Assembly (NCBI GenBank): GCA_037189525.1
Contig: JBBCJC010000005.1
Location: 224,001 to 288,000, forward strand
Source of the DNA: Gemmatimonadales bacterium
Lineage (GTDB): Bacteria; Gemmatimonadota; Gemmatimonadetes; Gemmatimonadales; GWC2-71-9
Length of the DNA: 64,000 nt
Direction of reading: 5' to 3'
The translations under genes were made by a program, and so were the position numbers. Below the pieces are notes generated by a model. That model was not told the DNA's origin. It ran no database searches and was given only the letters and a program-made list of their open reading frames with translations. Shown here piece after piece: positions 19,748 to 38,589 of the stretch. Every line of letters begins with the position of its first letter. Position 1 is the first letter of the stretch.

Positions 19748-19754
19748 TGGCTGC

Positions 19755-21479: not shown

Positions 21480-21552
21480 TCTGGACTTACCTCCCTACGA
21501 GGCCCATCCGAAGATCGGATGGCAGAGTGAGACGCCACCGTGGCGTCGAGCA

Positions 21553-21627
21553 TGGGCGAAGAGGGATTCGAACCCCCGACATCCTGCGTGTAAGGCAGGC
21601 GCTCTGGACCAGCTGAGCTATTCGCCC
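21553..21627 (-). tRNA. tRNA-Val(TAC), CCA not encoded
   Basis: GGGCGAA...TTCGCCC-A acceptor, anticodon arm CCTGC-CTTACAC-GCAGG, TTCGAAT T loop. Confidence 0.96.
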
Positions 21628-21941: not shown

Positions 21942-22946
21942 CTACGTCCGGTCAAGCGTTGGAGCCGTTTCCTCGTCGCCAATTGAAACATCCCACCCGA
22001 TATCGAGCGCGGCGCGACGGGGGCGGTCCCTCCGCCGACGCCACCAGTACCCGAACACCAGCAACCCGCCGACCACCGACCAAATCCCGCCCGCCGCCAG
22101 CCACAGGCCCCAATTGTACCGACGGCGAACATCCCGCTGCCAGCCCTCGTCGAACCGATCCCGGGTGTAGCCGGCCGTCCGCACCACGGCGGAATCGAAC
22201 GGAACGCCCTGCGCCAGCTGGCCGAGCAGCGGTGCGAGCGTGCCGTCGCGGCTGCCGCGCGCCAGAAAGGCGACCGCACTCGCCGCCAGCGCGTAGGCCG
22301 TCTCCGCTTCATGCCGGTTGCCGCGCAGCGAATTGTTGAGCTCGCCGAGTGACGGCACCGCCCCGCGCATCACACCCAGATTGAGGGCCAGACGATCGAA
22401 CCGATCGAACTCCCCGGCGGCCAGCACCGCGTACCCTTCGTCGAACCAGAGCGGCACCCGGCCCCGGATCGATTGCCGCAGCGCAAAGTGCGCCAGTTCG
22501 TGCCGCAGGACCCGGACGGGATCGTCGCCGCCGTCGGCGCGCACCGCAATCAGCCGCGCACCCGGCAGCGCCAGCCCGACCCCCCAGCGCGGCACCTGCC
22601 CCCGCCCGGCCCGATGAAAGGCCGCTTCACCGCGCACGACCACCAGCGAGAGGGGGGTGACCGTGACGCGCCCCAAGCCATACCAGTCGCTCGGCCGGTC
22701 GGCGATTTCCGCGAGGGCCACGGCAAGATCGAGATCCCTGGCCTGGGCAATCGCCGTGACCTGGCCGACGGTGACGGCACTGGCCTCCGCGCCGACGAGA
22801 TCGCCGGCCAGCGACGAGAGACGGCTGCTGCGTTCGAGTGGCGGTGCTTGCTGCGCGAGTGTTGGAAGCGCCGTCAGGACGAGGCAGGCGGCGAGGAGCG
22901 CGGCACCGATTCGCCTCGCTCGACGGCTTCCAGCAGTTCCTGACAT
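21942..22946 (-). CDS. Exported, C-terminally anchored gluzincin (peptidase MA-like) metalloprotease
   Basis: HELAH plus PLWFDEG third ligand, signal peptide, C-terminal TM followed by WWRRRR; start uncertain (22946 or 22958). Confidence 0.8.
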   Translation of the reverse strand: MSGTAGSRRARRIGAALLAACLVLTALPTLAQQAPPLERSSRLSSLAGDLVGAEASAVTVGQVTAIAQARDLDLAVALAEIADRPSDWYGLGRVTVTPLSLVVVRGEAAFHRAGRGQVPRWGVGLALPGARLIAVRADGGDDPVRVLRHELAHFALRQSIRGRVPLWFDEGYAVLAAGEFDRFDRLALNLGVMRGAVPSLGELNNSLRGNRHEAETAYALAASAVAFLARGSRDGTLAPLLGQLAQGVPFDSAVVRTAGYTRDRFDEGWQRDVRRRYNWGLWLAAGGIWSVVGGLLVFGYWWRRRRDRPRRAALDIGWDVSIGDEETAPTLDRT

Positions 22947-23749
22947 CGTTTGGCCCATGGCGCAAACCGATTGGCGTTGGCCCCCTTATGCCAGACGGCC
23001 TTAGCCCCCGCATGGTCTCCGGCAAACCACTTGGCCCGCCCGAGATCGTAGTAGGCTTCGATCAGATTGGGACCGAGCTGGATGGCTTTCTCGAAGAAGG
23101 TCTGCGCATCGAGATCCATTTCCCGCTCGAGGTACACCAGGCCCAGGTAATAGTGGGCGTAGAGTACCGCCTTCCGATCGTTGTCGAGGCGGATGGCCCG
23201 GGAGAGATGCTCGATGGCCTCCCCGAAGATCCGCTTCTTGAGACAAATGTAACCGACATTGACCCGGGCCAGTGCATTGGTGGGCTCCTCCGCGAGGACC
23301 CGCGAAAAGGCCGCCAGCGCCTCGTCGAACTTGTGGCCCAGCATCTGGGCCCAGCCCAGCAGCGAGGCGGCCTGCAGATCGCCCGGCGCCAGCTCGAGCG
23401 CCCGGGTCAGCGCTTGCTCGGCAGCGGCGTGGTCGCCCAGCGCGATCAGCGACCAGCCCTTCTCGATGAAGGTCGACGCGCCGAGATGATCGGCTCGGAC
23501 CAGCGGCCGCCGCTCGACCATCTGGGGGTCGCGGGTGGTCTCGGCCGTTCCCTGCTTGTAGCTCTCGACCAGGCCCTTGATCCGCTCCCGGAGCGACTCG
23601 AAGTGGTTGAGCGCCGCTTCGGTTTCCTTGTAGATGGCCACGATCCGACGCTTGATCTGCTCCCGCACCACGGGCGTCGCCGCCTGCCCGACCTGGGCTT
23701 CCAGCGCGGCAATTTCCCGCTCGATCGGCCCCGCCGCGCGCTCCGTCAC
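22874..23749 (-). CDS. Coiled-coil plus TPR protein
   Basis: N-terminal heptad helix, then ~5 TPRs (ALELAPGD, EEPTNALARVNVG, AIQLGPNLIEAYYDLG). Confidence 0.85.
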   Translation of the reverse strand: MTERAAGPIEREIAALEAQVGQAATPVVREQIKRRIVAIYKETEAALNHFESLRERIKGLVESYKQGTAETTRDPQMVERRPLVRADHLGASTFIEKGWSLIALGDHAAAEQALTRALELAPGDLQAASLLGWAQMLGHKFDEALAAFSRVLAEEPTNALARVNVGYICLKKRIFGEAIEHLSRAIRLDNDRKAVLYAHYYLGLVYLEREMDLDAQTFFEKAIQLGPNLIEAYYDLGRAKWFAGDHAGAKAVWHKGANANRFAPWAKRCQELLEAVERGESVPRSSPPASS

Positions 23750-24234
23750 AGCACCTGTCCCGACCGGTTGTAGGATGTGATCGTGATTCGGCCACTGGCC
23801 AGGTCGAAATCGGCGGTCCGCCCGAAATCGCCCCCGACGGCTTCACCGACCAGGCGAATGCCCAACCGATGCAGCACCTCGCGCGCCGCGACCACGTTGC
23901 GATCGCCCATTTGAATTGACCCTGGCGGCGTCAGGGAGACAAACATGCTGGCACCGCCGACCAGGCGCGCCGTGATGGTCGGTGCCCGAGCCCCCCGCGC
24001 AATCATCCGCTCCAGCAGTTCGGGCGCCGCCGTCTGCGCATAGCGTCCGGGTTGGCCGGTTACCCGGCCCATGGCCTGCGAGGGCAGCAGCGCATGGGCG
24101 AGCCCGCCGATCCGGGTCGTCGCATCGTGCAGCACGATAGCTACGCAGCTGCCGAGCGCCACCGCCACCAGCCGGGCCGGCGCGTCGGTCACCAGCAGTT
24201 CCCCGACCCGAACGACGAGACGCGGCGTCGTCAT
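23746..24234 (-). CDS. cheD: Chemoreceptor glutamine deamidase CheD
   Basis: LGSCVAIVLHD (catalytic Cys), GGLAHALLP (His), LVGGASMF, GDRN, VGGDFGR. Confidence 0.93.
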   Translation of the reverse strand: MTTPRLVVRVGELLVTDAPARLVAVALGSCVAIVLHDATTRIGGLAHALLPSQAMGRVTGQPGRYAQTAAPELLERMIARGARAPTITARLVGGASMFVSLTPPGSIQMGDRNVVAAREVLHRLGIRLVGEAVGGDFGRTADFDLASGRITITSYNRSGQVL

Positions 24235-25019
24235 CGGACCCTCCGGTAGATCCGCTCGCGGCGGTCGACCGGCTCGAGCCGTGGCGCCACGGCCCACGCC
24301 GCCAGTTCGGCCTTGCCCAGCACCAGCAGCCCGCCCGGACGGAGCGCATCCACCAGCCCCGTCAGGATCCGTTCCTGCGCAGCTTCGGTGAAATAGATCA
24401 GCACGTTGCGGCACAGGATCAGATCGCAGCCGGTCCGTTCACCGGGCCGGGTCAGGTCCGCCTGGCGGAATCGGATCGCCTCGCGCCAGATGGCTGGCAT
24501 GACCAGGCCGTCCGGCTCGACCGTCAGCGGCGCATCGGGGACCATACTCGCGAGAGCGGCCCGCATCCTGACCGGATAGCGGCCCGGCACCGCCACCGCG
24601 AGCGAGCGGGCGTCGAGATCGGTGGCGTCGATCTGCCAGGCTCCCGGTTGGGGCCGCTGCCGCCAGAGGAGCGCAGCGAGCGACCAGGCTTCCTCACCAG
24701 TTGCGCACCCGGCGCTCCACGCCGCGAGCGGCCGACCCGATGGCCAGCTGAGCAGCGGACCCAGCGCGGACCAGACCGACGGGTTCCGGAAAAAGCCGGT
24801 GACATTGACGGTGAGCGCCGCCGCAAGCCGGCTCCGCTCCGCGGCGTCGTGATCGAGCAGATCGGCATACGCGGCCGGATCGGCCACTCCGCACGCCCGC
24901 CACCTGATCCGGAGCCGCCGGTCGAAGTACGCCGGCTTGCACCAGGTCAACGCCTCGGCGCCGACAGCTGCCAGATGCGCATGGATCCGCTCCACGGACG
25001 AGTCGACGGCGGTCATCAT
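24231..25019 (-). CDS. cheR: Protein-glutamate O-methyltransferase CheR
   Basis: NVTGFFRN, WSAGCATGEE, DATDLD, DLILCRNVLIYF, LRPGGLLVLG. Confidence 0.93.
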   Translation of the reverse strand: MMTAVDSSVERIHAHLAAVGAEALTWCKPAYFDRRLRIRWRACGVADPAAYADLLDHDAAERSRLAAALTVNVTGFFRNPSVWSALGPLLSWPSGRPLAAWSAGCATGEEAWSLAALLWRQRPQPGAWQIDATDLDARSLAVAVPGRYPVRMRAALASMVPDAPLTVEPDGLVMPAIWREAIRFRQADLTRPGERTGCDLILCRNVLIYFTEAAQERILTGLVDALRPGGLLVLGKAELAAWAVAPRLEPVDRRERIYRRVR

Positions 25020-26632
25020 CCGGACACCGGCAACAGTTCGAGATTGGCGCGGGCGAGCTGATGGCCGGGATTGAGCCGAACCGCCTGGGCCCAATGCTCG
25101 CGCGCCTGATCGGCGGCGCGACGCCGGAAGGCCAGGTTGCCGAGTTTGAAGAAGAGGTCGTCGCCCAACTCCGGGGCGAGCACGGCAGCGCGGTCGTAGT
25201 GCTGGGTGGCCTCATCGTAACGCCCCGAGCGATAGAGCAGATCGCCCAGGTTCTTGTGGAGCTGGGGGAGCGCCGGGTCGTCGGTCGCGGTTTCACGCAG
25301 CAGAGTCTCGGCGCCGGCGACATCACCGGTGGCCTCGAGCAGGACGGCCAGGTTGTTCCGCAGGACCGGATGGGCGGGATGCGCACCAACTCCGTCTCGG
25401 GCCAGCGCCAGCGCCGGCTCCAACTGCTCCTGCATGGCAAGCGCGAGCACCGCAGCAAAGTACCAGAGCGGCGGCGGGGTACCGGTCTCGAGTTCACGCA
25501 CGCGTTCGAGCCGCGCCCAGGCCACCGCCGGATCGTCGCGCCTGAGTCCGAGCAGGGCCCAATTGACGAAGACCATCCGGTTGTCCGGCAGCCGGCCCGC
25601 GGCCTCGGCGAACATGGCGTCGGCCTGGTCGAGCCGGCCGACCTCTTCGAGCGCGATGGCCAGGTTGTGCATCACCTGTCCCCGCGGCCCGGCCCGATCG
25701 AGCGACTGGCGGAACGAATCGACCGCCTCCGACCAGCGTCCCTGCCGTCCGGCAATCACGCCGAGCAGAAAGGGCGCCGCACCTTCCGACGGTCTCAACT
25801 CGATGACGCGACGCAATTCCCGCGCGGCTTCCTCCAGCATACCGCTGCGCAGGAATGCGACCCCCAGGTTGCGATGCTCTTCGATCTGCGCTTCGAGGAG
25901 ACGAGACGGTGTCGTCTTGGACGACATCCCGATCCGCTGCGCCAGCCCGGCGGTAATCAGTCCGAACAACGCCTGCCCAGCCTCGAAGTCGGAGAGGCCG
26001 GAGGCATCGATTACTTCCCGGGTGTCCCGGACGCCATCGATCAGCGGCAGCAAGCGGCGCTGCGCTTCGGTAAAACTCAAAGTCTCGTTGGCCAGCAGCG
26101 AGCGATCCAGCGCGAAGATCAGATCGAAGCTGGGGACCTTCTTTTCGATCAGGCTCCACTCGTCGATGCGGCGCGCGCCCTCGAGCAGGAGATTCTCGGG
26201 ATTGATCCGATCGAGATCGCCCTCCATCTCGGGACGGAGGCCGGCATCGAAGGTGAACGTCCCGGTGGTCCAAGCGAAGAGGGTGTAGACCGCCTCGTCG
26301 ATCTGGAATCGAAGGACCCGCTTCAGTTCGTCCGGAGCAATCGCGCCCAGGCTGACGAGGATCTCTCCGAGCCGCCGGCCGCGGGCGCCGTGCTGCAGCG
26401 CCAGCGCCTGATCGAGCTGCTCGCGCGTGATGGCGCCGGTGTTGAGCAGGATGTCGCCGATCCGATCTCGCCGGTTGACGATGGTGGCGTAGGTGATCCA
26501 GCCGTCCTCGAAGTAAATCGACCCGAACTGCTGCCGGTCGCTCAGCGCGAGACAGCCGGTCCGGCGGCCGAAGAAGAGCAGCTGGACCACGTCCGGCAGG
26601 CTGGCCTCTTTGAGGCTCCCTTTGATGGCCAT
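25016..26632 (-). CDS. DUF4388 (PATAN-like) + MshEN + TPR protein
   Basis: MAIKGSLKEASLPDVVQLL..RRTG DUF4388 start, tandem MshEN motifs, W..G.F.F and LLLEGARRIDEW, C-terminal TPRs. Confidence 0.88.
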   Translation of the reverse strand: MAIKGSLKEASLPDVVQLLFFGRRTGCLALSDRQQFGSIYFEDGWITYATIVNRRDRIGDILLNTGAITREQLDQALALQHGARGRRLGEILVSLGAIAPDELKRVLRFQIDEAVYTLFAWTTGTFTFDAGLRPEMEGDLDRINPENLLLEGARRIDEWSLIEKKVPSFDLIFALDRSLLANETLSFTEAQRRLLPLIDGVRDTREVIDASGLSDFEAGQALFGLITAGLAQRIGMSSKTTPSRLLEAQIEEHRNLGVAFLRSGMLEEAARELRRVIELRPSEGAAPFLLGVIAGRQGRWSEAVDSFRQSLDRAGPRGQVMHNLAIALEEVGRLDQADAMFAEAAGRLPDNRMVFVNWALLGLRRDDPAVAWARLERVRELETGTPPPLWYFAAVLALAMQEQLEPALALARDGVGAHPAHPVLRNNLAVLLEATGDVAGAETLLRETATDDPALPQLHKNLGDLLYRSGRYDEATQHYDRAAVLAPELGDDLFFKLGNLAFRRRAADQAREHWAQAVRLNPGHQLARANLELLPVSG

Positions 26633-28572
26633 CAGCCGAGCTCCGTGAGCAGGCGCTCACCGGCAACCGGCCAGACATGGATCATCTTTTCCGGGCTGCG
26701 CACGATACCCATTCCCGGGGACAGGATTCCGCTGCGGGCGCCGAGCGGGCGGCGTTCACGCCGCGGCGTCTTGCCTTCCACGGTATCCAGCGTCTCCCGC
26801 GCCAGCGCAGCTGACGGTACGGTATGCGCCGCCTCCGCTTCGACCATGACGCGATGCACGATGCCCTGCACCGCCCGCACCGAATCGGCGGGGCGGCCCG
26901 CCAGGAAATCGATCAGACCGACATCGTTGGCGGCCGGCGTGTCTGCAAGGAGCGAGCGCACCACGGCGAGGCGAACTTCCCGATCGGGGCTCCGCACATC
27001 GACGACCGTACCGCCCTCGAGGCGATTGAGCAGCCGCGGATCGAACCCGGCCAGATCGGACAGGGCCCGCGCGCTGGTAAAGACCATCGGACGGCCGCCC
27101 TCCTCGAGCGCCGCATAGATCTGCAGCAGCTCCGCATGCGCCCGCGGCTCGTTGGCCAGCAGGTGGATGTCGTCGATCAGGAGGGCCGCGACCCACTGGT
27201 ACCGGGCCCGCCACTGCGCGACCTCCTCGGGCGTGGTGAGCGACGCCAGCTCACCAAGCAGACTGTGCGCCGAAAGGCAGGCAATCGGCGCCAGGCCGCG
27301 ATGAGCGAGCGCATTGCCGAGCCCGTGGAGCAGATGGGTCTTTCCAACTCCGCTCGGCCCGGCGAGCACCAGCGGGTTGTGACGGGCGCCCGGCTCCGCG
27401 ACGATCGACGCGAGGGTCTCCAGCGCAACCCGATTGGAAGCGCCGACCCCGATGGTCGCCAGGGTCAGGTCCGGCAGCGGCGCGGACAACGGCGCACGAC
27501 GGGTCCGCGCTTCGGCGACGAGGCGACGGGCCGCTACCAGTTGATCCGGATCACGCAAGACATCGGCACCTGCCAGGTCCGGAGCCAGGACTGCGATTTC
27601 GGCCGCCAGCTGGACCAGTTCGTTGGCATCGCGCTCGAAGGCGTCGAGCACCGGCTCGGGATCGCCCGGGCCCTCTTCGGCCAGCAGGCGTTCCAGTCGC
27701 CCGGTGCGCATCCCGGCGCCCTGCCAGAGGGCCACGGCGTCCCGTAGCTTGCCGCGCCAATGATCGAACTGTTCAGAGACGTTGGCGACGACTTCCGTCA
27801 GGAATTCGTCGAACTCTCCCGCAGCGAACTCCTGCGACGCCGTGCCGCTGCCATCGACCGAAACGGCAGCCGTTCGTTCGAGCCCCACCAGCGCCAAAGC
27901 GTCATCGACTGGAATCGGCGTCGGGGTGGTCTCCTGCACCGCCAGGATGCGATTGAGCGCGCCGAGATATTCCTTGACCGAGCCGAGTTCCGCTTCGGCC
28001 AGCGCGGTCACGACGCCGGGCAGCAGGTCGAGACCGGCCTCGGCAATACGCCGATCGAGGATTTGCGCCCGCGCCGCCGCGCCCGGCAGCCCCAACTCCA
28101 CGGTCGAAGCATCGCGCAGCCGGCGGACTAGGCGGGCATCGAGCCCGGTCAACTGGGCCAACGGACGCGCAGCCGTCACGACCGTCGCGAGCCCCGCAGC
28201 CAGCCGGCTTTCGAGCACGTCGAACACGAACGACTGCACCGCCAGTTGTCGCTCGATCATCTCGAGATCGTCGAGCAAGACAATTTCGGCGCGGAGCAGC
28301 CGCTCCCTCAACGCGACGCCCGCATCCGCCAACCCGCGGCTCTGAACATGCTCGGCCAGACGGCTCAAGGTGACCAGTTCGACCTGGCGCGGCGGAGTCG
28401 CTCCGGCCACCCGATCGCGAATCGAGCGCAGCAAGTGCGTCTTGCCGGAGCCCCGGGCGCCGATGATCAGCAGCAGGAAATGCGCGCGCGGTGACTCCGC
28501 CACCATCCGGGCCGCAGCAAACGCAGCGCGGGTGGCCGGATCAGGCACCAGGGACGCAAACGGGTCGGTCAC
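26632..28572 (-). CDS. Tandem DnaA/Hda-family AAA+ ATPase without DNA-binding domain IV
   Basis: Two DnaA domain III modules: GARGSGKTHLL/LLDD and NPLVLAGPSGVGKTHLLHGLGN/LLIDDIHLL/DPRLLNRLEGG/SVRAVQG. Confidence 0.85.
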   Translation of the reverse strand: MTDPFASLVPDPATRAAFAAARMVAESPRAHFLLLIIGARGSGKTHLLRSIRDRVAGATPPRQVELVTLSRLAEHVQSRGLADAGVALRERLLRAEIVLLDDLEMIERQLAVQSFVFDVLESRLAAGLATVVTAARPLAQLTGLDARLVRRLRDASTVELGLPGAAARAQILDRRIAEAGLDLLPGVVTALAEAELGSVKEYLGALNRILAVQETTPTPIPVDDALALVGLERTAAVSVDGSGTASQEFAAGEFDEFLTEVVANVSEQFDHWRGKLRDAVALWQGAGMRTGRLERLLAEEGPGDPEPVLDAFERDANELVQLAAEIAVLAPDLAGADVLRDPDQLVAARRLVAEARTRRAPLSAPLPDLTLATIGVGASNRVALETLASIVAEPGARHNPLVLAGPSGVGKTHLLHGLGNALAHRGLAPIACLSAHSLLGELASLTTPEEVAQWRARYQWVAALLIDDIHLLANEPRAHAELLQIYAALEEGGRPMVFTSARALSDLAGFDPRLLNRLEGGTVVDVRSPDREVRLAVVRSLLADTPAANDVGLIDFLAGRPADSVRAVQGIVHRVMVEAEAAHTVPSAALARETLDTVEGKTPRRERRPLGARSGILSPGMGIVRSPEKMIHVWPVAGERLLTELG

Positions 28573-29171
28573 AGCGTCGGGGGGCGCGCCGCCAGCCGCT
28601 GCAGCACGATGGTCGACAGCGCTTTCAAGGTCTCGAATACCCCGGTTCCGTGCAGCGCGTCGGCGGCTAGGCTGGGCACCGAGCGGAAGTTGAACGCCTC
28701 GTCCATCTCATCCGGCGTCAACACGAGGTCGGACGGCAGGTCCTGCTTGTTGTACTGCAGCACCAGCGGAAGCTGGCGGATGTCAACGCCTTGCTCCAGC
28801 AGATTTTCCTGGAGGTTCTGAAAGCTCTCGACATTTTCGTCGAAGCGGCGCGCCTGGCTGTCGGCCACGAAGACCACGCCATCGGCCCCTTGCAGCACCA
28901 GGCGCCGGGTCGCGTTGTAATAGACCTGGCCCGGCACGGTATAGAGCTGGAATCGCGTCGTGAACCCGGAAATGACGCCCAGTTCGATCGGCAGGAAATC
29001 GAAGAACAGCGTCCGATCCGCCTGCGTGGCAAGCGACACCATCCGCCCCCGCCGCGCTTCGGGAACGCGGCCGTGGATATACTGCAAATTGGTCGTCTTC
29101 CCGCAGCGGCCGGGCCCGTAGTAGACCAGCTTGCAGGTGATTTCGCGGGCGGTAAAGTTGACGAGAGGCAT
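28569..29171 (-). CDS. mglA: Ras-like small GTPase MglA
   Basis: KLVYYGPGRCGKTTNL, DRTLFFDFLP, LYTVPGQVYY, GVVFVADSQ, QYNKQDLP; closely follows the Myxococcus MglA pattern. Confidence 0.96.
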   Translation of the reverse strand: MPLVNFTAREITCKLVYYGPGRCGKTTNLQYIHGRVPEARRGRMVSLATQADRTLFFDFLPIELGVISGFTTRFQLYTVPGQVYYNATRRLVLQGADGVVFVADSQARRFDENVESFQNLQENLLEQGVDIRQLPLVLQYNKQDLPSDLVLTPDEMDEAFNFRSVPSLAADALHGTGVFETLKALSTIVLQRLAARPPTL

Positions 29172-29174
29172 AGT

Positions 29175-29636
29175 TTACCGTCCGAAGAGCGCGCGGAGGC
29201 TCGAGTCGAGATCCTCTTCGAACGTCTCGGCCAGGACCTGACGGGCTGGCGGATCGCGCGGCGCCACCTTGACCAGGTCGTCGATCATCCGGCCAAAGAA
29301 GAGCTGCACCATGCCGAGCGAGGTATCCGGGCCGAAGACCGCCAGACCGATCCACTGCGCGTCGGGCATCGCAAAGGGAGCCAGGTAGACCCCGGTGCGC
29401 GAACTGTGATGCACCACCGCGCCGAACTCGCCGGCCTGCATTTCCGACGCAATGGCGCGCGTCGACGCCACGATCCCGGCCCCCAGCGCAGCTGCCGTCA
29501 TCACATCGAGCGACCGGGTGAAGCCGTGCTGCGCCACGACCTGGCCCGACGACGTCATCAGGAGCGCAATCCGCACCTGCGACTCGGCCACGAAGGTCGC
29601 CAGCGGCGATTCGACCCAGGGTTCGATGGTCCGCAT
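29175..29636 (-). CDS. mglB: Roadblock/LC7 protein, MglB-like GAP
   Basis: Directly upstream of mglA; GQVVAQHG, AAALGAG, DTSLGMVQLF, acidic C-terminal helix EEDLDSSLRALF. Confidence 0.75.
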   Translation of the reverse strand: MRTIEPWVESPLATFVAESQVRIALLMTSSGQVVAQHGFTRSLDVMTAAALGAGIVASTRAIASEMQAGEFGAVVHHSSRTGVYLAPFAMPDAQWIGLAVFGPDTSLGMVQLFFGRMIDDLVKVAPRDPPARQVLAETFEEDLDSSLRALFGR

Positions 29637-29986
29637 CAGCTCAACTGGCCGGCCGCATCCAGCAGGGCGAGCCGGACTTCACCGATGTTGACGTCGTTGC
29701 CGGTCACCGCCACGAGCAGCAACCCCTCGCCGCCCGCCACGATGAAGAGTTGTCCGGCCGCCGCCTGCAGGAGCAGCACGCTCATGGGCGGTGTGTGCAG
29801 GGTCCGGGTCAGCACGCCGAGCCGCTGCGCCAGGCGGGCAGCAAAGGCGGCGGCCGCCTCGGTGGCCTGCCCTTCCAGCGCCGCTTCGGCCACGACCAGC
29901 CCGTCCTCGATCGAGACGAGAAGCGCGCTCCGGACACCCGCAACCCGGGTAATGTCCTCGAGCATCAGATGTTCGCGGCCGATCAT
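29636..29986 (-). CDS. Roadblock/LC7 domain protein (MglB/MglC-like paralog)
   Basis: GVRSALLVSIEDGLVVAE and VNIGEVRLAL roadblock pattern, 116 aa. Confidence 0.8.
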   Translation of the reverse strand: MIGREHLMLEDITRVAGVRSALLVSIEDGLVVAEAALEGQATEAAAAFAARLAQRLGVLTRTLHTPPMSVLLLQAAAGQLFIVAGGEGLLLVAVTGNDVNIGEVRLALLDAAGQLS

Positions 29987-30771
29987 TCGAGCGCCTCCAG
30001 CCAGCGGCGGGCATCCTGCGTCGCTCGGTCCGCAATCCGCGCCAGGCGACCTGCCGGCACTTCCCGCCCCCGCATGACCAGGAGCAGCGTTTCCGGCGTC
30101 GGCGTGCGCAGTTCGTAATTGACGGCGCCGCTTTCAATCGCAATCGCCTTCCACTCGCCGAGTTCGAGCATCCGGGTGGCCCGATCGGCTTCACGCGATA
30201 CACCGGCCAGAGCCGCGGCGACCGCCTCGCTGGCGTCGACGCCATCGGCGCGGCTGAGTTCTCCGCGCAGCACCCGCCCCTGCTGATCGAACAGCAGGCT
30301 GGGCGTGGGTCCGGCCGCGGCGGCGACCGGGACGGGATTCGGATCGGCTTCGATCTGCGCCACCCGGGCCGCCATCATGGAGCGGATCCGTTCGATGGCG
30401 GAGGCCAGAGTGGTGTCGTCAGGAGCGAGTTCGAGGGCACGCGAGAGATGGCGAACACTCCGGCCGAGATCGCCGGTTCTGAAAGCCAGGAACGCCAGCC
30501 CTTTGTGGGCGCCAAGATGGTCGGCATCGAGCCGGAGCACGGTGGTCCAGGCATCGAAGGCGGCGTCACCCTCACCGCGATCCGACTGGATCCGCGCCAG
30601 CAGGTCGTGCGCGTCGGCCACGTTGGGGTATCGGGCCACACCGCGGCTCGCGACCGTGAGGGCCGCATCGAGCTGGCCACGGCGGCGCAACGCTTCCGCC
30701 AGGCGCAGGAACACCAGACTGGCCGGATCGGAGGCCAGTTCGAGCGTCATCGCGGCAATATCGTCAGTCAT
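29983..30771 (-). CDS. TPR + C-terminal roadblock-like domain protein
   Basis: DPASLVFLRLAEALRRRG TPRs; C-terminal LLFDQQGRVL..VAAALAGV..LELGEW..PAGRL roadblock-like fold. Confidence 0.75.
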   Translation of the reverse strand: MTDDIAAMTLELASDPASLVFLRLAEALRRRGQLDAALTVASRGVARYPNVADAHDLLARIQSDRGEGDAAFDAWTTVLRLDADHLGAHKGLAFLAFRTGDLGRSVRHLSRALELAPDDTTLASAIERIRSMMAARVAQIEADPNPVPVAAAAGPTPSLLFDQQGRVLRGELSRADGVDASEAVAAALAGVSREADRATRMLELGEWKAIAIESGAVNYELRTPTPETLLLVMRGREVPAGRLARIADRATQDARRWLEALE

Positions 30772-31915
30772 AATTCTCTCGCAGCAGAGCCGCCAGCTGG
30801 CGCGCCGCCGGAATGGCCGCGCCGACCGTTACGACTTTCCGCTCTTCCTCGGAACCTAACGAGGGTAACGCCAGCCACGCTTCAAAGCCATGGACCGCCT
30901 CGTCCAGGCGCCCGGCCCCCATCAGCGCCCATGACAAGAGCCGGAGCGCCTTGGGCGACGCGGGGTCCAATCGCACCGCTTCCCGGAATGCCGTTTCGGC
31001 CTGGGTGTAGCGCCGGTCGGCCAGAAACACGCGGCCTAGCATCACGTGAGTTTCGGCCTCATCGGGAAAGGCGGCGACGGCCGCTTGCGCAATCGAAAGC
31101 GCGGCCTCGGCCTGACGGGCCTGCAACTGGCGTTCGGCCTCCGACAGGAGCGACTGGGCATCGGCGCGCGGCGCGGCCTGAGTGGTTTCCTTGATCGGAT
31201 CGCGCAGCGCGAGCACCCCGGCAGCCGACAGGCCGAAGACGGCCCGGGCCACGTCGAACTCGGGTTCGCTCAGCAGGGTCGCCATTTCCTGGAGATCACG
31301 GGTCCCGTCGGCCACGGTGAGGACGCGCCATTCGAACGGATTGAGGACCAGGCTGCCCGGCTCCCCTTCCGGCAGGCTGGCAATCCGGGGGATCACACCC
31401 AGATGGGGAACCTTGGCCCGAATCCGGGACCACTCGTCGATCCGGCGCGCGCCTTCGAGCAACAGCGCCTCGACGGAAATCCGGACATCCGCTTCGCGCG
31501 GAATGGTGTCGGGCGCAGCCTCCTCGAAGACGAAATATCCTTCGGACCAGCCGAGCATCGTGAAGACGACTTCCTCGATCTGGGCGCGGACCTGCGAGGC
31601 GAGTTCCTTCGGCGTGATGGCGCCGATCGCGACCAGAATGGCACCGATCCGGCGCTGGTCGCCGCCGGACTGGAGCGCCTGGGCCCGGGTCAGATCTTCG
31701 CTGGCAATCCGCCCCGCCCGCACCAGGTGCTGTCCCAGCATGTGGGGATTCGATCGGACCGACGCGGCCACGATGCCGGCCTCGTGAAACCAGATGGTTC
31801 CCTCGTTGTGGCGCAGATCCGAAACGACCCGGAGACGCCCGGTCTTCTTGCCCAGGTCGAGCAACTGGAAGACGTCGTGGATACCGAGTTCGCGAAGCGG
31901 GCCCTGGATGGCCAT
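30764..31915 (-). CDS. DUF4388 + degenerate MshEN + TPR protein
   Basis: MAIQGPLRELGIHDVFQLL..KKTG, WSEGYFVF, LLLEGARRIDEW; paralog of 25016..26632. Confidence 0.87.
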   Translation of the reverse strand: MAIQGPLRELGIHDVFQLLDLGKKTGRLRVVSDLRHNEGTIWFHEAGIVAASVRSNPHMLGQHLVRAGRIASEDLTRAQALQSGGDQRRIGAILVAIGAITPKELASQVRAQIEEVVFTMLGWSEGYFVFEEAAPDTIPREADVRISVEALLLEGARRIDEWSRIRAKVPHLGVIPRIASLPEGEPGSLVLNPFEWRVLTVADGTRDLQEMATLLSEPEFDVARAVFGLSAAGVLALRDPIKETTQAAPRADAQSLLSEAERQLQARQAEAALSIAQAAVAAFPDEAETHVMLGRVFLADRRYTQAETAFREAVRLDPASPKALRLLSWALMGAGRLDEAVHGFEAWLALPSLGSEEERKVVTVGAAIPAARQLAALLRENYD

Positions 31916-31916
31916 C

Positions 31917-34580
31917 TCAGGCCTCGACCGGCTGGAGGATGTGCATCAGATCGCGGGTCGACCGCGCTTCCGCGCGCGCCGCCGCAGCCAGCGGTCCGGT
32001 CGGATTGCTCCGAATCACCTGCTCCCACTCGTCCAACGCCTCGGCAAACTGACCGAGCGCAGCGAGCGACATACCGCGGTGGAAGCGCGCCGTCGCCTGG
32101 TCGGACACGAACTTGAGGACCCGGGTAAACGCGGTCAGCGCATCACGATGACGGCGTTCGTCGGCCAACGACCGGCCGAGCAGGACCAGGGCATCGGTCG
32201 CGTAGGGCTCGACCAGCAGGAGGTCGACCAGCAGCTTGATGGCTTCGGCCGTTTTGCGCTGCCGGCGGAGCAGTTCTCCGAGAGCAAGTCCGGCGTCCAG
32301 GTAGGTGGGCAGGACCGCGAGGGCTCGTTCGTAGGCAGCCTGCGCCAGGCCGAGTTCGCGGCGCTCTTCGCGCACCAGGCCGCTTTCGAACCAGGCCTGC
32401 ACGTGCCCGGGGTCGAGCGCCACCGCCGCCTGGAGCGAACTCAAGGCTTCGTCGGAATCGCCCAGCTGGCGTCCGATCCGGCCGCGCAGCACCAGCAGAT
32501 CCGCCCGCGCCGGCGCCAGCGCAATGGCGCCGAGCGCATCGTCCTGGGCGCCGTGGAGATCGTTCATGGTGAGACGAGCCCGGGCCCGCAACTCGAGCGG
32601 CTCGGGCTCGCGCGGCCTGAGCCGCACCAGATCGTCGGCCAAGGCACGCGCTTCCTCCGCACGCCCCAACGCGAGCAGCGCTGCCGCTTCACCACGCAGG
32701 ATGGCCGGATCGTCGGGCAGCTCCTGCCGGGCCTGGCGAAAGCGTTCGAGCGCCTCACCATGCAGACCGCGCCGGGCAAAGATCTCTCCCAGGAGCGCGA
32801 TACCCGGCCCGGCAGGCCCGCCGCGCCGCAAGGTGCGATGCACTTCGGCGGCGGCCGACTCGAGCAGCCCCTTGGCAATCAGGTCACGGGCCACGTCGAA
32901 CGGGTCGACCGCAGCCACCGCGGCCGCTTCATCGGGCGCCAGCGCGACGAACAAGTCGTCGAGCACGGCCGGATCGAAGGTGAAGTCTTCACCGACGGCT
33001 TCGAGCGTCACATCGGCCGCGAGGTTCGGAACGATCCCGACTGAGGTCTCGCTGAACTGCAACTCGATCGACAACGCGTATTTCTGGGGAACGTAGAACG
33101 GATCGATCTCCAGCGCGCGGCGGGTTTCCCGCAGCGCTTCGTCGAACGCGCCGAGCTGGCTCAATGCAAAACCGAGATTGTAGTGCGCCGGGGCGCAACT
33201 GGGATCGGACTCCACCGCGCGCCCGAAGGCGTTCCGGGCATCCGGAAAGCGCTTCAACTCCATCAGCACCAGGCCGATGCCGTTCCAGGCAATGGCGTGA
33301 TCCGGATCGGCGGCGAGCACGCCGCGATATCCGTCGAGAGCCGCCTGATAACGCTGCCGGTGAAAGTGGAACAGCGCCAGATTGAGCCGCGCGGCCTGCA
33401 GCCCCCCCTGCGCAGCAATGGCGCGCTCGAACGCGAGCCGGGCCGGTTCCACCTCCTGCTCCGCAGCCAGCAGTACGGCCAGGTTGTTCCAGGCGAGCGC
33501 GGCGTCGGCATCGAGCCGGACCGCTTCTTCGTACGCCGCGCGCGCCTCGGCCCGGCGACCGGCCTGGTGCAGCACCACGCCGCGCTCGTTCCAGAGCTTG
33601 GGATTCTCGGGATCCTGCTCGAGCAGCCGGCGATAGAGTTCGAGCGCTTCGCCGGTGTCCCGCTGCAGCAGGTGAATCTCGGCCATACCTTCGAGCGCCG
33701 GACGTTCGTCCTCTCCGGCTTCGAGCGCCAGACGGTACTCGCGCAACGCTTCGACGAAGTAACCCCGCCGCCGGAATGCCACCGCCAGGTTGAGATGCGC
33801 TTCGGTCGGACCGCTCGAAGCATCGGCGGGTTGAGCCGATTCGCGGGACGCGGGGCGCGCCTGATTGATCCGCAAGTTGGCCTGGGCCGACCCGAGCGAT
33901 GGGTTGAGCGTCACCGCGCGACGGGTCGCGGTCCGCGCCGCATCATGAAAACCGAGATCGCCATAGACGAAGCCGAGCAGATACTGGACATCGGCGTGTT
34001 CGGGATTGATCTGGGCCGCTTCGGTCAGCACTGTCAGCGCGCCGTCGACCAAGCCACGATTGTAGAGCGCCTGGCCGAGATAGAGGCGGGCCACGGTGCT
34101 GCGGGGGTCGATCTCGACGGCGCGCTGGAACCATTCGGTGGCCAGGTCGTGACGACCGCGGGCCTGTTCGACCAGGCCGAGCTGCACCAGCGCGGTCCCA
34201 TCCCTGGGGTTGCTGCGCAGCAGATCTTCGAACTGCTCGCTGGACCGGTCGTACTGGTGGAGGGCCAGATAGATCCGGCCGAGTTCGAGGCGCAATTGGC
34301 GATCGTCGGGGCGCCGGGCGATCTGCTCCCGCAGTTCCCCGATCCGGCGATCGTAGTAGCCGGTTTCGCGCTGGACGGTGTCGAGATTCTCCTGCGCCAC
34401 CCGCATGTGCGGGTCGAGTTCGAGCGCCCGGGTAAACGCGGCAATGGCCTCGGCCACCATGCCGCGATCGTAGTAGAGTACGCCGAGATTGTTGTGCGCG
34501 CCCGAATCGGACGGATCGATCCGCCGTGCCAGGGAGCGAAGCACTCCCAGGTCCCGTTCGGACGTCGCCTGATGGGCCAT
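31917..34580 (-). CDS. Large multi-TPR scaffold protein
   Basis: 887 aa with many TPRs (AHNNLGVLY, AWNNLAVLL, AWNGIGLVL, AHYNLGFAL); no signal peptide. Confidence 0.9.
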   Translation of the reverse strand: MAHQATSERDLGVLRSLARRIDPSDSGAHNNLGVLYYDRGMVAEAIAAFTRALELDPHMRVAQENLDTVQRETGYYDRRIGELREQIARRPDDRQLRLELGRIYLALHQYDRSSEQFEDLLRSNPRDGTALVQLGLVEQARGRHDLATEWFQRAVEIDPRSTVARLYLGQALYNRGLVDGALTVLTEAAQINPEHADVQYLLGFVYGDLGFHDAARTATRRAVTLNPSLGSAQANLRINQARPASRESAQPADASSGPTEAHLNLAVAFRRRGYFVEALREYRLALEAGEDERPALEGMAEIHLLQRDTGEALELYRRLLEQDPENPKLWNERGVVLHQAGRRAEARAAYEEAVRLDADAALAWNNLAVLLAAEQEVEPARLAFERAIAAQGGLQAARLNLALFHFHRQRYQAALDGYRGVLAADPDHAIAWNGIGLVLMELKRFPDARNAFGRAVESDPSCAPAHYNLGFALSQLGAFDEALRETRRALEIDPFYVPQKYALSIELQFSETSVGIVPNLAADVTLEAVGEDFTFDPAVLDDLFVALAPDEAAAVAAVDPFDVARDLIAKGLLESAAAEVHRTLRRGGPAGPGIALLGEIFARRGLHGEALERFRQARQELPDDPAILRGEAAALLALGRAEEARALADDLVRLRPREPEPLELRARARLTMNDLHGAQDDALGAIALAPARADLLVLRGRIGRQLGDSDEALSSLQAAVALDPGHVQAWFESGLVREERRELGLAQAAYERALAVLPTYLDAGLALGELLRRQRKTAEAIKLLVDLLLVEPYATDALVLLGRSLADERRHRDALTAFTRVLKFVSDQATARFHRGMSLAALGQFAEALDEWEQVIRSNPTGPLAAAARAEARSTRDLMHILQPVEA

Positions 34581-34582
34581 GG

Positions 34583-35203
34583 CTATCGGATCGGGCGAAT
34601 CGAGTCGAAGATGGCGGTCAGCGACGCTACATCCGGCATCAGGATGAACTGCCCGTTGACCGACTCGTCGGAGCCGGCAATCCGGAAGGCGGTTTCGACG
34701 CAGATGACGTGATCACGCGAGTGGCCGAAGTTGAGGTAGGCGGTCGTCAACACCGCGCCGGCCTGATCTACCACCAGCGCAGGTACCGACGGCACCAGCA
34801 TCATGCCCATGAAGTCCGACAGCGCGTTGAGGTAGGCGCTGCAGAGGATGTTGCCCGTTTCCATCACGGTCGAGCGTTCCATCTCCGAGAACCCCGGCCC
34901 GCCGCTCGGCGAGCGCAGCAGGATGCTGCAGAGGGTCCGGGCCGAGACTTCGGGGAACACGAGCAGGGTCCGGCCGGTCAGGTCGCCCATCATGTGCATC
35001 AAGACTGCGGCGATGATCGTATCGGTCGGACCGAGCAGTTCGGCGGCTTCTTCGAGCCGCTTCACATCCACCTGCGGGACATCGATCATGATGGTGCGCC
35101 CGGTCATCTGCGACAGCGCCGTCGCGGCATGACCCGCGCCGATGTTCGCGATTTCCCGGAGGGCATCCCGCTGGGCCGCGGTCATCTCCCGTGCATCGAT
35201 CAT
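34583..35203 (-). CDS. cheC: CheY-P phosphatase CheC
   Basis: Two ExxN active-site motifs: REIANIGAGHAATALSQM and METGNILCSAYLNAL. Confidence 0.94.
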   Translation of the reverse strand: MIDAREMTAAQRDALREIANIGAGHAATALSQMTGRTIMIDVPQVDVKRLEEAAELLGPTDTIIAAVLMHMMGDLTGRTLLVFPEVSARTLCSILLRSPSGGPGFSEMERSTVMETGNILCSAYLNALSDFMGMMLVPSVPALVVDQAGAVLTTAYLNFGHSRDHVICVETAFRIAGSDESVNGQFILMPDVASLTAIFDSIRPIR

Positions 35204-35248
35204 CTCATCCTCGCCTTCCGCTAAGAGGCCGCGCCGCTGCCCGCCGCA

Positions 35249-36817
35249 TCAGAAAAACGCCGTCGGGTCGAGCACGAACGCCGGCGCGCCGTCCGCCAGG
35301 ATCGTGGCGCCGCTGACCCATCCCGGCAACGAGTCGGGCGCTTCGATCCGTTCCAGCAATACGTCATGCTGACCAAGCAGGGTGTCGACGGCGACGGCGC
35401 CGTCGCGGCTGCCCCATTCGAGCACCAGCACCGGCCGGCGGTTCGGGACCTCCGTCCGCCGGCGACCGACCAGCTCGGCCAGGTCGACGAACGGCACCGA
35501 CCGGTCCCGAAATGCGAAGCTGCCGTTGCCCGCCACCGTCTCGGTCCGCCCGGGCAAAACCGCCTCGCGCACCAGGCGGAACGGAATCGCGTACCGCTCC
35601 CCGTCCGCACCAACCAGCAAGACCCGCTGCACCGCCGTCGTCAGCGGCACCGTGATCTCGAAGACGGTGCCCCGCCCCGGCTCCGACCGGAGCCCGAGCG
35701 ACCCGCCGAGCGCCCGGACCTTCGAGGCCACCACATCGAGCCCGACGCCGCGCCCGGACACCTCCGTCACTTCGGCCTTGGTCGAGAACCCCGGGCGCAC
35801 CAGGAGCTGCAACACCTCGGCATCCGACAAGGTTTCGGGCGCCGCCGGCAGCAGTCCGCGTTCGACCGCGCGACGCACCACCGCATCGCGATCGACGCCG
35901 CGGCCATCGTCTTCGAGCCGAATCACGATCCACTCGCGCCGCCGCCCCGCGCCCAGTCGAAGGCTCGCTTCGGCCGGCTTGCCGGCGGCCACCCGATCCG
36001 CGGGCCGCTCGACCCCGTGGTCGACGGCGTTCCGCAGCAAGTGGATCAGCGGCTCGACTAGTTCCTCCAGCATGGCGCGATCGAGCTCGATACCTTCGCC
36101 GCCCAGTTCGAGGCGCGCCGGCTTGCCCAGCGACTCGCCCAGATCGCGCACCACCCGGGGAAAACGGCCGAACAGTTCCGACACCGGCGCCAATCGGGCC
36201 TTGATGACCAGGCCGTGCAGCGACCGCACCAGCGAATCGACCTGCCCCGACACCTGCTCCAGTTCCGGATCGGTCCGGGCCGCCACCAGATTGGCCAGCC
36301 GATTGCGCGCCACGACCAGCTCGCCGGCCGTCTGCAGCAGATCGTCGAGGCGATCCGGATCGACGCGCACCGGACGACGCTCGGTGCGCATCGGCGTCGG
36401 CGCCGCTGCAGGCGCGGCGGCCGGCGCCGCCACCGGGCTGCTGGTGGAGACGAGACGCGCGAGCGCCGCGACGACCTGATCGGCCTCGGGAATCGGCACT
36501 CCAGCCGTAGCGGGTTCGATTCCCTGCTCGAGCAGATCGACGGTCCGAAACAACGCGGCAACGACGGCGCGCGACGGCGCCAGTTCACCCCGCCGAACGG
36601 CCTCCAACAGGTGCTCGGCGCCGTGGGTCAGATCCACCACATCGCCGTACCCCATCGACGCCGCCGCGCCCTTCAGCGAATGAAAGGCCCGGAACAGTTC
36701 CGCCAACGGCGCCAGGTCCGCAAGATCCCGCTCCCAGCGCAGCAACTCCGCCGAGGCGCGGCGCAAATGCTCCCGGCCATCGGCCAGGAACAGCGCGGTG
36801 TACCGGCGCAGGTCCAC
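35249..36817 (-). CDS. cheA: Chemotaxis histidine kinase CheA (P1, P3, P4, P5; no evident P2)
   Basis: FRAFHSLKG Hpt, HLLRNAVDHG, EDDGRG, PGFSTK, SGRGVGLDVV, C-terminal CheW domain. Confidence 0.96.
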   Translation of the reverse strand: MDLRRYTALFLADGREHLRRASAELLRWERDLADLAPLAELFRAFHSLKGAAASMGYGDVVDLTHGAEHLLEAVRRGELAPSRAVVAALFRTVDLLEQGIEPATAGVPIPEADQVVAALARLVSTSSPVAAPAAAPAAAPTPMRTERRPVRVDPDRLDDLLQTAGELVVARNRLANLVAARTDPELEQVSGQVDSLVRSLHGLVIKARLAPVSELFGRFPRVVRDLGESLGKPARLELGGEGIELDRAMLEELVEPLIHLLRNAVDHGVERPADRVAAGKPAEASLRLGAGRRREWIVIRLEDDGRGVDRDAVVRRAVERGLLPAAPETLSDAEVLQLLVRPGFSTKAEVTEVSGRGVGLDVVASKVRALGGSLGLRSEPGRGTVFEITVPLTTAVQRVLLVGADGERYAIPFRLVREAVLPGRTETVAGNGSFAFRDRSVPFVDLAELVGRRRTEVPNRRPVLVLEWGSRDGAVAVDTLLGQHDVLLERIEAPDSLPGWVSGATILADGAPAFVLDPTAFF

Positions 36818-36827
36818 GGACCTCGCC

Positions 36828-37190
36828 TCAGCCGAGCAGTCGCTGAACCGCTTCGAGGACGCGCGAAGGCTGAAACGGCTTGACCACGAAGTCCTTGGCC
36901 CCGGCCTGAATCGCCTCGACGACTAGGGCCTGCTGCCCCATCGCGCTGCACATCAGGATCTTGGCGCCCGGATCCTCTTTGCAGATGGCGCGAACTGCCT
37001 CGATCCCGCCCATGGTCGGCATCACGATGTCCATGGTTACGAGATCAGGCTTGAGCGCGGCATACTGGCGGACCGCCTGCTCGCCGGTTTCCGCTTCGCC
37101 GACCACCTCGAACCCGGCCTGGGTCAGGATATCGGCAATCATGGTCCGCATGAACATCGCGTCGTCGCAAACAAGCACCGTGTGGGCCAC
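36828..37190 (-). CDS. cheY: Chemotaxis response regulator CheY (Bacillus/Thermotoga-like)
   Basis: VCDDAMFMR, TMDIVMP, MCSAMGQQ, AKDFVVKPF; GTG start at 37190. Confidence 0.95.
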   Translation of the reverse strand: MAHTVLVCDDAMFMRTMIADILTQAGFEVVGEAETGEQAVRQYAALKPDLVTMDIVMPTMGGIEAVRAICKEDPGAKILMCSAMGQQALVVEAIQAGAKDFVVKPFQPSRVLEAVQRLLG

Positions 37191-37219
37191 GCGTTTCCTC
37201 CCCATCGACTCCGAGCGCG

Positions 37220-37609
37220 TCAGGCTGATCGGCCGAACACCGAGTCCAACGCGCCATCGAGATCCAGCCGAGCTATCGACGCATCCGCCGCCGCCAGCTC
37301 GAGTACCGCTTCGACTCCGAGTCCAACTCGCCCACCCCGGGCTCGCAACACGACGAGCCAGGGCGACGGTCCGGACCGCGCCGTCCGAATACCGAGCAGA
37401 TCGGCAGCGCGCACGATCGTAACGAGGGTACCGCGAATATTTGCGACACCCTCGACCGGAGATGCAACTCCCGGCACTCGGACCAGGGTCGTTTCCGTGC
37501 AAACTTCGAGCACGACCGCGACCGGAAGCGAGAACTGGAAATCGCCCACCCGACAGACCACGAGACGATCGCTCGTCGGCTTACCCTTCGGTGGCTCGAT
37601 AGAATCCAA
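37220..37609 (-). CDS. cheW: CheW coupling protein (short, divergent)
   Basis: LVRVPGVASPVEGVANIRGTLV and VGLGVEAV CheW pattern; next to cheY/cheA. Confidence 0.85.
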   Translation of the reverse strand: MDSIEPPKGKPTSDRLVVCRVGDFQFSLPVAVVLEVCTETTLVRVPGVASPVEGVANIRGTLVTIVRAADLLGIRTARSGPSPWLVVLRARGGRVGLGVEAVLELAAADASIARLDLDGALDSVFGRSA

Positions 37610-38582: not shown

Positions 38583-38589
38583 GCAGACC

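Follow-up and report, generated by a model that had tools for sequence, protein, structure and literature searches.

Introduction

In Myxococcus xanthus, the Dif chemosensory pathway controls the production of extracellular polysaccharide (EPS) (PMC4671073), and GTP-bound MglA, together with the tetratricopeptide repeat (TPR) protein SgmX, activates type IV pili by a route that is independent of cyclic di-GMP (c-di-GMP) (PMC7519303). Dif-like clusters have been defined by a two-transmembrane receptor of the 44-heptad (44H) class found with CheA, CheW, CheY, and CheC as well as CheD (PMC2577667), and in Synechocystis the PATAN domain (DUF4388) binds PilB1 and PilC (10.1101/2021.06.11.447907). 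In addition, Wuichet and Sogaard-Andersen (PMC4316618) list MglB-MglB-MglA-PATAN loci in Chloroflexi and, for Gemmatimonas aurantiaca GAU_1409, the neighbourhood PATAN>MglA>-PATAN>. This report concerns a cluster of 16 genes in a 64,000-nucleotide stretch of a Gemmatimonadales genome (GCA_037189525.1, contig JBBCJC010000005.1, positions 224,001 to 288,000; hereafter, the window), in which chemosensory (che) genes surround a block encoding Mgl proteins, PATAN proteins, and a DnaA-like ATPase.

The cluster occupies positions 21942-37609, with all 16 genes on the minus strand. Open reading frame and Pfam checks confirmed the domains assigned to them in a preliminary description of this DNA, and the gene order agrees with its statement that the Mgl/ATPase block sits inside the che genes and parts cheW-Y-A-C from cheR-D. 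We give a probability of roughly one half to the following reading: a hub protein made of PATAN, MshEN, and TPR domains controls surface behaviour based on type IV pili, and its inputs are a Dif-like, largely non-flagellar che pathway and a second MglA switch. The parts, their motifs, and their co-inheritance are taken from sequence and the docking of the ATPase tail on the hub from a model, while the remaining steps, among them the pilus link and any contact between the che and Mgl arms, we infer.

In the proposed pathway, two orphan 44-heptad receptors, one DifA-like with two transmembrane segments and the other a GAF protein with several, would drive CheA via CheW, and CheC and CheD would reset phosphorylated CheY. 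MglA-GTP, set by three Roadblock proteins, would bring the TPR/PATAN scaffold to a pole, and c-di-GMP on the MshEN motif of the hub would gate the coupling of the hub to the ATPase, which, rather than being an initiator, would form an oligomeric, ATP-dependent scaffold or remodeller. The PATAN domains would act on PilB and PilC as they do in cyanobacteria, and the output would be where or whether pili extend, and attachment. The che and Mgl arms would be detachable inputs to one hub.

The claim that no characterised system has this composition held up in a full-text literature search, journals behind subscription aside, which found one table row (PMC4316618); the excerpts of PMC3441718 contain nothing on this phylum. 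The parts of the cluster are of known kinds, while their arrangement is conserved and apparently undescribed; one predicted pair, the DnaA-fold ATPase and the hub, is new.

Conservation and natural variants of the cluster

A total of 151 Gemmatimonadota genomes were searched, which are kin, so that counts among them are not independent, and 20 loci were fetched from the best matches. As had been expected of a conserved system, che genes stand on both sides of the Mgl block in 18 of these loci; the remaining two comprise one with a decayed che part and one that consists of rluD-ATPase-hub-peptidase alone. A second receiver match follows cheD in 17 of the 20 loci and reads as cheB in the 12 inspected, one of which was confirmed by Pfam and has two more cheW genes. 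Most relatives carry cheB and one or two extra cheW genes between cheD and the last TPR gene. Neither this genome nor its sister has them, and they are missing from two closely related records as well. Moreover, the P2 domain of CheA (PF07194) is present in both relatives scanned (L036, L226) and absent from the CheA of the window. Judged by these comparisons, the 16-gene set of the window is a reduced form of the cluster. At one locus, an AAA_22 (ExeA-like) gene is inserted between cheB and the cheW genes (L044:16861-17661).

One unlabelled locus, L079, led to a second phylum, where the hub ortholog was matched at E < 1e-160 in 18 of 19 genomes. In the six genomes fetched from it, the gene order is the same over the extent of the contigs. 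Their ATPase has a single module and was not found in one of them (G169), two receptors of 44-heptad length lie inside the cluster, at its end, and the HExxH peptidase lies outside it. The upstream neighbours of the cluster differ between the two phyla, and the interleaved order is kept. One of the second-phylum clusters is interrupted by about 3 kb of unrelated, restriction-modification-like genes (L229:7670-10575). Beyond these phyla, an Atlas protein cluster dominated by WOR-3 resembles the hub. When five genomes found by way of named loci were searched for cheC, one gave weak matches and the others none.

Eighteen loci were picked as likely deletion variants. Genera g28 (three genomes) and g15 (two genomes) have none of the che genes and an intact core; the Mgl block and the ATPase are gone, with the che genes intact, in genus g43; and the ATPase and cheD are gone in genus g37. 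Genus g11 lacks cheR, cheD, cheB, and both receptors, and its MglA is diverged (37-43% identical) and its large TPR gene truncated (L212, L213, L214). Two genera are thus cleanly without che genes and another without the Mgl block, so that the one dedicated module that had been proposed is not indivisible. The hub, in turn, is kept in 20/20 and 16/16 spanning loci, including the che-less and Mgl-less variants.

The same variants, together with the tight packing seen genome-wide, would also suit two separate modules, the che genes and the Mgl-PATAN-ATPase core, which share a transcription unit behind housekeeping genes. We regard this as unlikely, as the interleaved order persists across two phyla despite the differing upstream neighbours, the hub stays with the che genes where the Mgl block was lost, and in g11 the loss of che genes and receptors goes together with changes in MglA and the large TPR protein.

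Regarding the packing itself, the largest gap is 45 nt (cheA-cheC), as first described. Between cheW and cheY it is 14 or 29 nt, according to which start is used. The cheY-cheA gap is 10 nt, and all other junctions overlap or are 3 nt or shorter. The flanks are equally dense: the upstream string yggS-divIVA-ileS-dksA-lspA-rluD enters cheW at intervals between -29 and 28 nt, and in the downstream division and cell wall (dcw) genes the intervals range from -4 to 85 nt. Tight spacing was for this reason rejected as proof of a dedicated operon; because it is the default of the genome, it neither proves such an operon nor bounds one at cheW. A scan of the cluster for promoters and terminators gave counts no different from the shuffled-sequence level. 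Purifying selection was found on all 16 genes, with dN/dS between 0.00 and 0.12, and 0.24 for cheR, in comparison with a genome of the same genus.

The proposed hub and the ATPase

The hub (25016-26632) combines DUF4388/PATAN with a tandem MshEN motif (about residues 55-110) and TPRs (residues 245-535), according to Pfam and the MshEN model. Both DUF4388 proteins of the cluster had been put forward as c-di-GMP receptors. The hub bears this out with 62.7 bits against a cut-off of 38, whereas the other one (30764-31915), a DUF4388/PATAN and TPR protein with a degenerate MshEN-like insert, reaches 31.8 bits with the same cut-off (NF053729). Tandem RLGxxL half-sites of the MshEN type occur in the hub family, two of them in 54 of 64 orthologs, and c-di-GMP binding is predicted from these.

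The ATPase gene (26632-28572) encodes tandem AAA+ modules of the DnaA domain III type, as recognised by Pfam, profile, and predicted structure. Its layout is AAA1, a helical linker, AAA2, a disordered spacer, and a conserved C-terminal motif, EK-x-x-W-x-W-P...R-x-x-E-E; the structure prediction returns two AAA modules, the helical linker, and a disordered tail, with a predicted local distance difference test score (pLDDT) of 88.6 and a predicted template-modelling score of 0.50. The C-terminal 34 residues (26635-26736) were modelled in the TPR groove of the hub, and this complex scored 0.80 against 0.02 for the best control, the controls being without another TPR protein of the cluster. Of solved pairs, 116 of 157 reach the mark used, and of mismatched pairs 2 of 215 do, which is a rough guide here, given our own alignments; at least 75% of contacts are common to the runs, with a partner pLDDT of at least 51. 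The modelled contacts join the near-invariant Glu628/Lys629 and Arg640 of the tail to the regions of conserved Lys460, Asn461, Asp492, and Asn323 of the hub. The model supports binding of the ATPase tail in the hub TPR groove, and with it the earlier suggestion that a protein with a c-di-GMP motif is tied to the DnaA-fold ATPase. Co-inheritance speaks for the proposed pathway: in all seven hub copies from loci without the ATPase, the MshEN insert of 54 aa is missing, as are the last TPRs, and these copies are 430-438 aa long, versus 537-587 aa in the 64 with the ATPase.

As for the origin of the ATPase, the family profile matches DnaA at E 4e-84 and Hda at E 7e-14, which puts it far nearer to the former, and the fold matches Bacillus subtilis DnaA domain III with a template-modelling score of 0.88; fold searches returned DnaA domain III, tandem AAA proteins of the p97 type (generic, at high rmsd, i.e., root-mean-square deviation), TPR proteins, and nothing else. 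Both modules have Walker A and B, the Arg finger, and sensor II: among 63 sequences, the Walker A Lys is present in 63 and 62, the Arg finger in 53 and 59, and the sensor II Arg in 59 and 51, respectively. The equivalents of the single-stranded DNA-binding residues of the initiator-specific motif (PMC10721633, PMC8287927) are mostly kept in AAA2 of the family (I190 as I/V/L in 54, R202 in 61, K222 as K/R in 47, and E228 in 62 of 63).

These features would fit a role in the cell cycle, in which the ATPase co-assembles with DnaA, inhibits it, or binds unwound origin DNA under the control of c-di-GMP and polarity, tying replication to asymmetric division; divIVA lies upstream of the cluster and the dcw cluster downstream. 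Such a role is, in our judgement, distinctly unlikely. Domain IV is absent, as Bac_DnaA_C does not occur among 25 of 25 Pfam families and the profile match stops before this domain, so that the ATPase, despite its conserved catalytic motifs, is not the initiator-type enzyme that it had been taken for. Hda carries a clamp-binding motif at its N-terminus, and this pattern was found in 0/63 sequences within the first 40 residues; the Hda model scores 108 bits against a cut-off of 195. AAA1 has lost the single-stranded DNA-binding equivalents, with His at I190 in 42 of 63 sequences, and AAA2 of this genome is without I190, I193, and K222. Furthermore, the ATPase gene and dnaA are on different contigs here, the ATPase gene is absent from many near-complete genomes, and the division genes on either side stand in the synteny usual for housekeeping genes. 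For the division or budding role once suggested for the cluster, no evidence was obtained, and the ATPase is dispensable in several lineages. A more elaborate version, in which the enzyme would be a clamp-independent regulator of DnaA or the origin, tethered by its tail to the c-di-GMP hub and positioned by MglA and the che proteins, with sensing and polarity gating replication or asymmetric division, is likewise a long shot.

The chemosensory arm

The che half was initially likened to the F1 class of Bacillus and Thermotoga. Its F1-type components stood, i.e., CheC/CheD and this type of CheY, but the closest characterised system proved to be the Dif pathway of Myxococcus, not Frz or the flagellar taxis of Bacillus. 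We take the F1 label to extend to Dif and to the Dif-like clusters of Geobacter. The W-Y-A-C order, the DifD-type CheY, and the presence of CheC and CheD make this half, by sequence, probably Dif-like/F1-type.

CheW (37220-37609) is short, covering Pfam model positions 2-91 of 138 (dN/dS 0.11), and its start is uncertain, with a TTG start that overlaps rluD. CheY (36828-37190; GTG start, alternative ATG at 37205) is a single-domain DifD/F1-type receiver with Asp54 and is 75-89% identical in relatives. Measured against the DifD specificity determinants listed in PMC4671073, it has 5/5 of the primary and 3/7 of the secondary residues. CheA (35249-36817; 522 aa) reads Hpt(His46)-dimer-HATPase-CheW by Pfam, P2 being absent in this lineage. 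The primary DifD set is presumably common to other F1 CheYs. CheC (34583-35203), a DifG-like phosphatase with both ExxN sites kept, and the deamidase CheD (23746-24234), with its catalytic Cys and His motifs kept, were both recognised in the cluster by Pfam and model checks as well as by alignment. CheR (24231-25019; Pfam) is under relaxed selection in this cheB-less lineage.

No receptor gene lies in the cluster of the window; a 44H two-transmembrane receptor with a tiny periplasmic loop is found instead at G000:C2:16720-17960 of the same genome, which holds two orphan receptors of 44-heptad length. The first, with two transmembrane segments and 413 aa, aligns over its full length with DifA-like proteins at 26-27% identity, and the second is a GAF receptor with several transmembrane segments behind an HD-domain gene. 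The two-transmembrane family occurs in 83 genomes, 81 of them with cheC (counted by hand, and some matches may be paralogs), and the GAF family in 78, 77 of them with cheC (four weak matches set aside). Both receptors are missing from 6/6 cheC-less genomes of this family of bacteria. Their co-occurrence with cheC makes them the probable inputs of the cluster. The membrane domains of the GAF receptor on contig C3 and of the second-phylum receptor showed no significant homology (E 0.19). At L064:3173-8437, on the same contig, a HEAT-repeat gene, the HD-domain (HD-GYP-like) gene, and the GAF 44-heptad receptor gene stand in a row, which is a possible c-di-GMP link to the cluster.

In Myxococcota, the CheC of the window was matched in 53 of 121 genomes. 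Ten loci read receptor-W-Y-A-C, the order being direct in nine of them, and the three CheYs checked have 12/12 DifD residues; the dif-like CheA of one locus (L252) carries a P2 domain, which the CheA of the window lacks.

Likeness to Dif raises the possibility that the che arm sets matrix production, with CheY as a phosphate sink and another receiver as output, and that the Mgl/PATAN core serves the same sessile switch. The W-Y-A-C order, the DifD-type CheY, and the DifA-like receptor all speak for such control, as do the role of Dif in EPS production in M. xanthus (PMC4671073) and the position of one candidate receptor behind an HD-domain gene. We nevertheless hold it to be doubtful: the cluster has no EPS genes (an EpsW-like regulator was not searched for), the match to the secondary DifD residues stops at three of seven, and CheR, CheB, and CheD are retained by the cluster.

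The Mgl arm

The MglA of the window (28569-29171) keeps, in alignment with M. xanthus MglA (E 2e-73), the Group 1 motifs given in PMC4316618, that is, the intrinsic Arg (Arg53) beside the G2 Thr and a TVPGQ G3. Position 22 of its P-loop is Arg, as in all 18 cluster orthologs aligned, and Leu in a paralog from a recR-linked mglBA pair elsewhere in the genome (G000:C3:79.8-81.0 kb), whose MglA is 51% identical to it. By these sequence features, the MglA of the window is a second Group 1 paralog, distinct from the recR-linked copy. The latter locus (L061:7531-8975) has an 84-aa gene of no known family ahead of mglBA, and its MglA has a 32-residue insertion near the C-terminus.

The genes preceding mglA include three for Roadblock proteins and one for a large TPR protein. 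Adjoining it is an MglB-like Roadblock protein (29175-29636; NF052242, E 6e-6, below cut-off), which, with its neighbour, a Roadblock/LC7 protein (29636-29986; Pfam), agrees with the coupled MglB of Group 1 MglAs; its role as a GTPase-activating protein (GAP) is putative. The third is a TPR and Roadblock protein (29983-30771), whose Roadblock match is E 9e-4 here and 3e-9 in the L079 ortholog. The all-TPR protein of 887 aa (31917-34580; Pfam) is a candidate MglA effector by analogy with SgmX, to which it shows generic TPR matches alone. By the same analogy, the Roadblock proteins would act like MglB/RomY (PMC9481161, PMC7519303, PMC11580455).

In 8 of the 10 Myxococcota loci, an MglA-family gene lies 4-7 kb upstream of the dif receptor. 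The eight GTPases concerned, which we take to be SofG-like, form their own long-branched clade with 100/100 support in a tree of 45 rows that was rooted at the midpoint and held no canonical Myxococcota MglA. Because they form a separate clade, the MglA of the window is not shown to be their ortholog, and that candidate relationship was dropped. At these loci (within L252-L261), the MglA-family gene is followed by a PocR histidine kinase gene just upstream of the dif-like cluster.

A scan with the MglA P-loop pattern listed 80 loci of at least 120. Among the matches listed, the cluster is present in 46/46 loci labelled Gemmatimonadota, as far as the loci reach, and in 3 of 34 others (one labelled Acidimicrobiia and two unlabelled); the remaining 31, all with the P-loop Arg, have none of it, so that this Arg fails as a marker of the cluster outside Gemmatimonadota. 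These 31, namely L069, L074, L082, L096, and 27 similar loci among those listed, hold MglA-like genes of Desulfobacterota or Myxococcota. The locus labelled Acidimicrobiia (L087) carries a Gemmatimonadales-like copy of the cluster and is possibly a misbinned contig, and at L102 and L138 other che genes, with no cluster, occur near an MglA-like gene with the P-loop Arg.

Relation to flagella and pili

In the 151 genomes, cheC was found in 100 and FliG in 40, with both in 27, cheC only in 73, FliG only in 13, and neither in 38; excluding the unpublished genomes G055 and G095, 71 of 98 cheC-bearing genomes have no FliG. The expectation that the cluster does not primarily serve flagella is thus sustained. 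The second phylum gave one marginal FliG match in 19 genomes, and PilM was found in 18 of these.

One alternative is an ordinary flagellar chemotaxis operon with inserted passengers, as this genome is flagellated, with a full flagellar cluster about 30-60 kb from the che-Mgl cluster, and as eight flagellated genomes show no other CheA among the candidates scored. For the family, however, the 73 cheC-bearing genomes without FliG already largely refute it, the second phylum is essentially without FliG, and flagella are tracked by a different CheA, which has two CheW domains (FliG in 14/14 genomes with close orthologs, counted by hand), so that we consider this explanation very improbable. Two CheW domains are a hallmark of F5 CheA (PMC10782961). 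This genome has two such che clusters, which are paralogous (G000:C5:940-951 kb and 994-1004 kb; CheA 85% identical), with PAS receptors, cheB, cheR, and cheX; both track flagella. The flagellar region itself extends over window positions 56771-64000 and G000:C5:288001-320000 and is bordered by genes of the REC-GGDEF, motAB, HD-domain, and histidine kinase kinds, and FliG is patchy in this family (13 of 72 genomes).

Assessment and meaning

Several observations weigh against the pathway proposed here. The che arm is eroding in this very genome (no cheB, no P2, relaxed cheR), and eight flagellated genomes show the cluster CheA alone (seven candidates scored per genome). The joint loss of the ATPase, the MshEN insert, and the TPRs may amount to one or two events, as it is seen in two genera of one family and two similar records, and genus g41 keeps the ATPase despite a degenerate second MshEN half. 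The complex score may reflect a generic likeness to TPR-peptide complexes, which are common among solved structures, and no other TPR protein of the cluster was among its controls. Lastly, there is no pilus gene within the cluster, and PilM, found in 145 of 151 genomes, among them 48 of the 51 that lack cheC, does not discriminate because it is near universal; its co-occurrence was set aside as uninformative on a pilus link.

The cluster is the sole CheA-based system found in most of the non-flagellated Gemmatimonadota genomes searched, and hence a main behaviour of this phylum, which is abundant in soil and sediment and has hardly been studied, is probably under its control. The proposed pathway also offers a wiring diagram for the long-noted MglA-PATAN neighbourhood, with candidate cognate receptors, and a new candidate pair, in which a DnaA-fold ATPase would have been recruited to signalling and would be bound to a PATAN-TPR protein with a c-di-GMP motif. 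Moreover, the natural deletion variants are a ready epistasis map.

Remaining genes and surroundings

Two further genes close the cluster. One encodes a coiled-coil and TPR protein of 291 aa (22874-23749), kept in both phyla by Pfam and synteny, and the other a gluzincin-type HExxH peptidase (21942-22958; Peptidase_MA_2 by Pfam) of uncertain start, with a probable signal peptide and a C-terminal membrane anchor. Upstream of cheW, window positions 37581-46284 hold a dense string of a TMEM260-like gene, yggS, divIVA, ileS, dksA/traR, lspA, and rluD; at most loci of Gemmatimonadota, lspA-rluD stand ahead of the cluster, which they do not in the second phylum. On the other side (204-19560 and 19624-21627) are the dcw cluster, from rsmH to ftsZ, after a tRNA-Val, a secreted TPR gene, and a tRNA-Asp, with no mraZ called ahead of rsmH.

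Comparison with known systems

The Dif system of M. xanthus and its Geobacter counterparts share with the present cluster the W-Y-A-C order, the five primary DifD residues of CheY, a non-flagellar character, CheC, and, in Geobacter, CheD and CheR, as well as a two-transmembrane, tiny-loop 44-heptad receptor in the genome; an MglA-family gene 4-7 kb from the dif receptor is a further point in common (8/10 Myxococcota loci). In contrast, the Gemmatimonadota receptor is outside the cluster, an eight-gene Mgl/PATAN/ATPase block that the dif loci lack splits the che genes, and the dif-linked MglAs are a separate clade (100/100) whose genes are parted from dif by unrelated ones.

With the MglA/MglB/MglC/RomRX-SgmX polarity system of M. 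xanthus and its Frz input, the cluster has in common the Arg finger of a Group 1 MglA, several Roadblock proteins, a large TPR protein, and chemosensory input. It differs in that its MglA is a second paralog beside a recR-linked mglBA elsewhere, there is no RomR in the cluster, and the PATAN-MshEN hub and the DnaA-fold ATPase have no counterpart there. The Frz (ACF) CheA is a fusion of CheA and receiver, whereas the CheA of the window has no fused receiver (no REC by Pfam).

The Group 1 MglA-MglB(-MglB)-PATAN neighbourhoods (PMC4316618) likewise place MglA beside PATAN proteins and two MglBs, and the order noted there for GAU_1409 matches the reduced form of genus g41; the excerpts of that paper make no mention of che genes, the ATPase, or the c-di-GMP motif, and report no test of function. 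As in the cyanobacterial PatA-type (PATAN-REC) systems, PATAN/DUF4388 occurs in a chemosensory locus and has a helical insert related to the N-termini of pilus ATPases, but REC is absent from both PATAN proteins of the window, which have a TPR tail instead, and CheY is a separate protein. Finally, the ATPase shares the domain III fold, Walker motifs, Arg finger, and sensor II with DnaA and Hda, from which it is set apart by its pair of tandem modules (reduced to a single module in the second phylum and some deep relatives), by the lack of domains I and IV and of the clamp motif, and by a unique tail that, as modelled, binds the TPRs of the hub.

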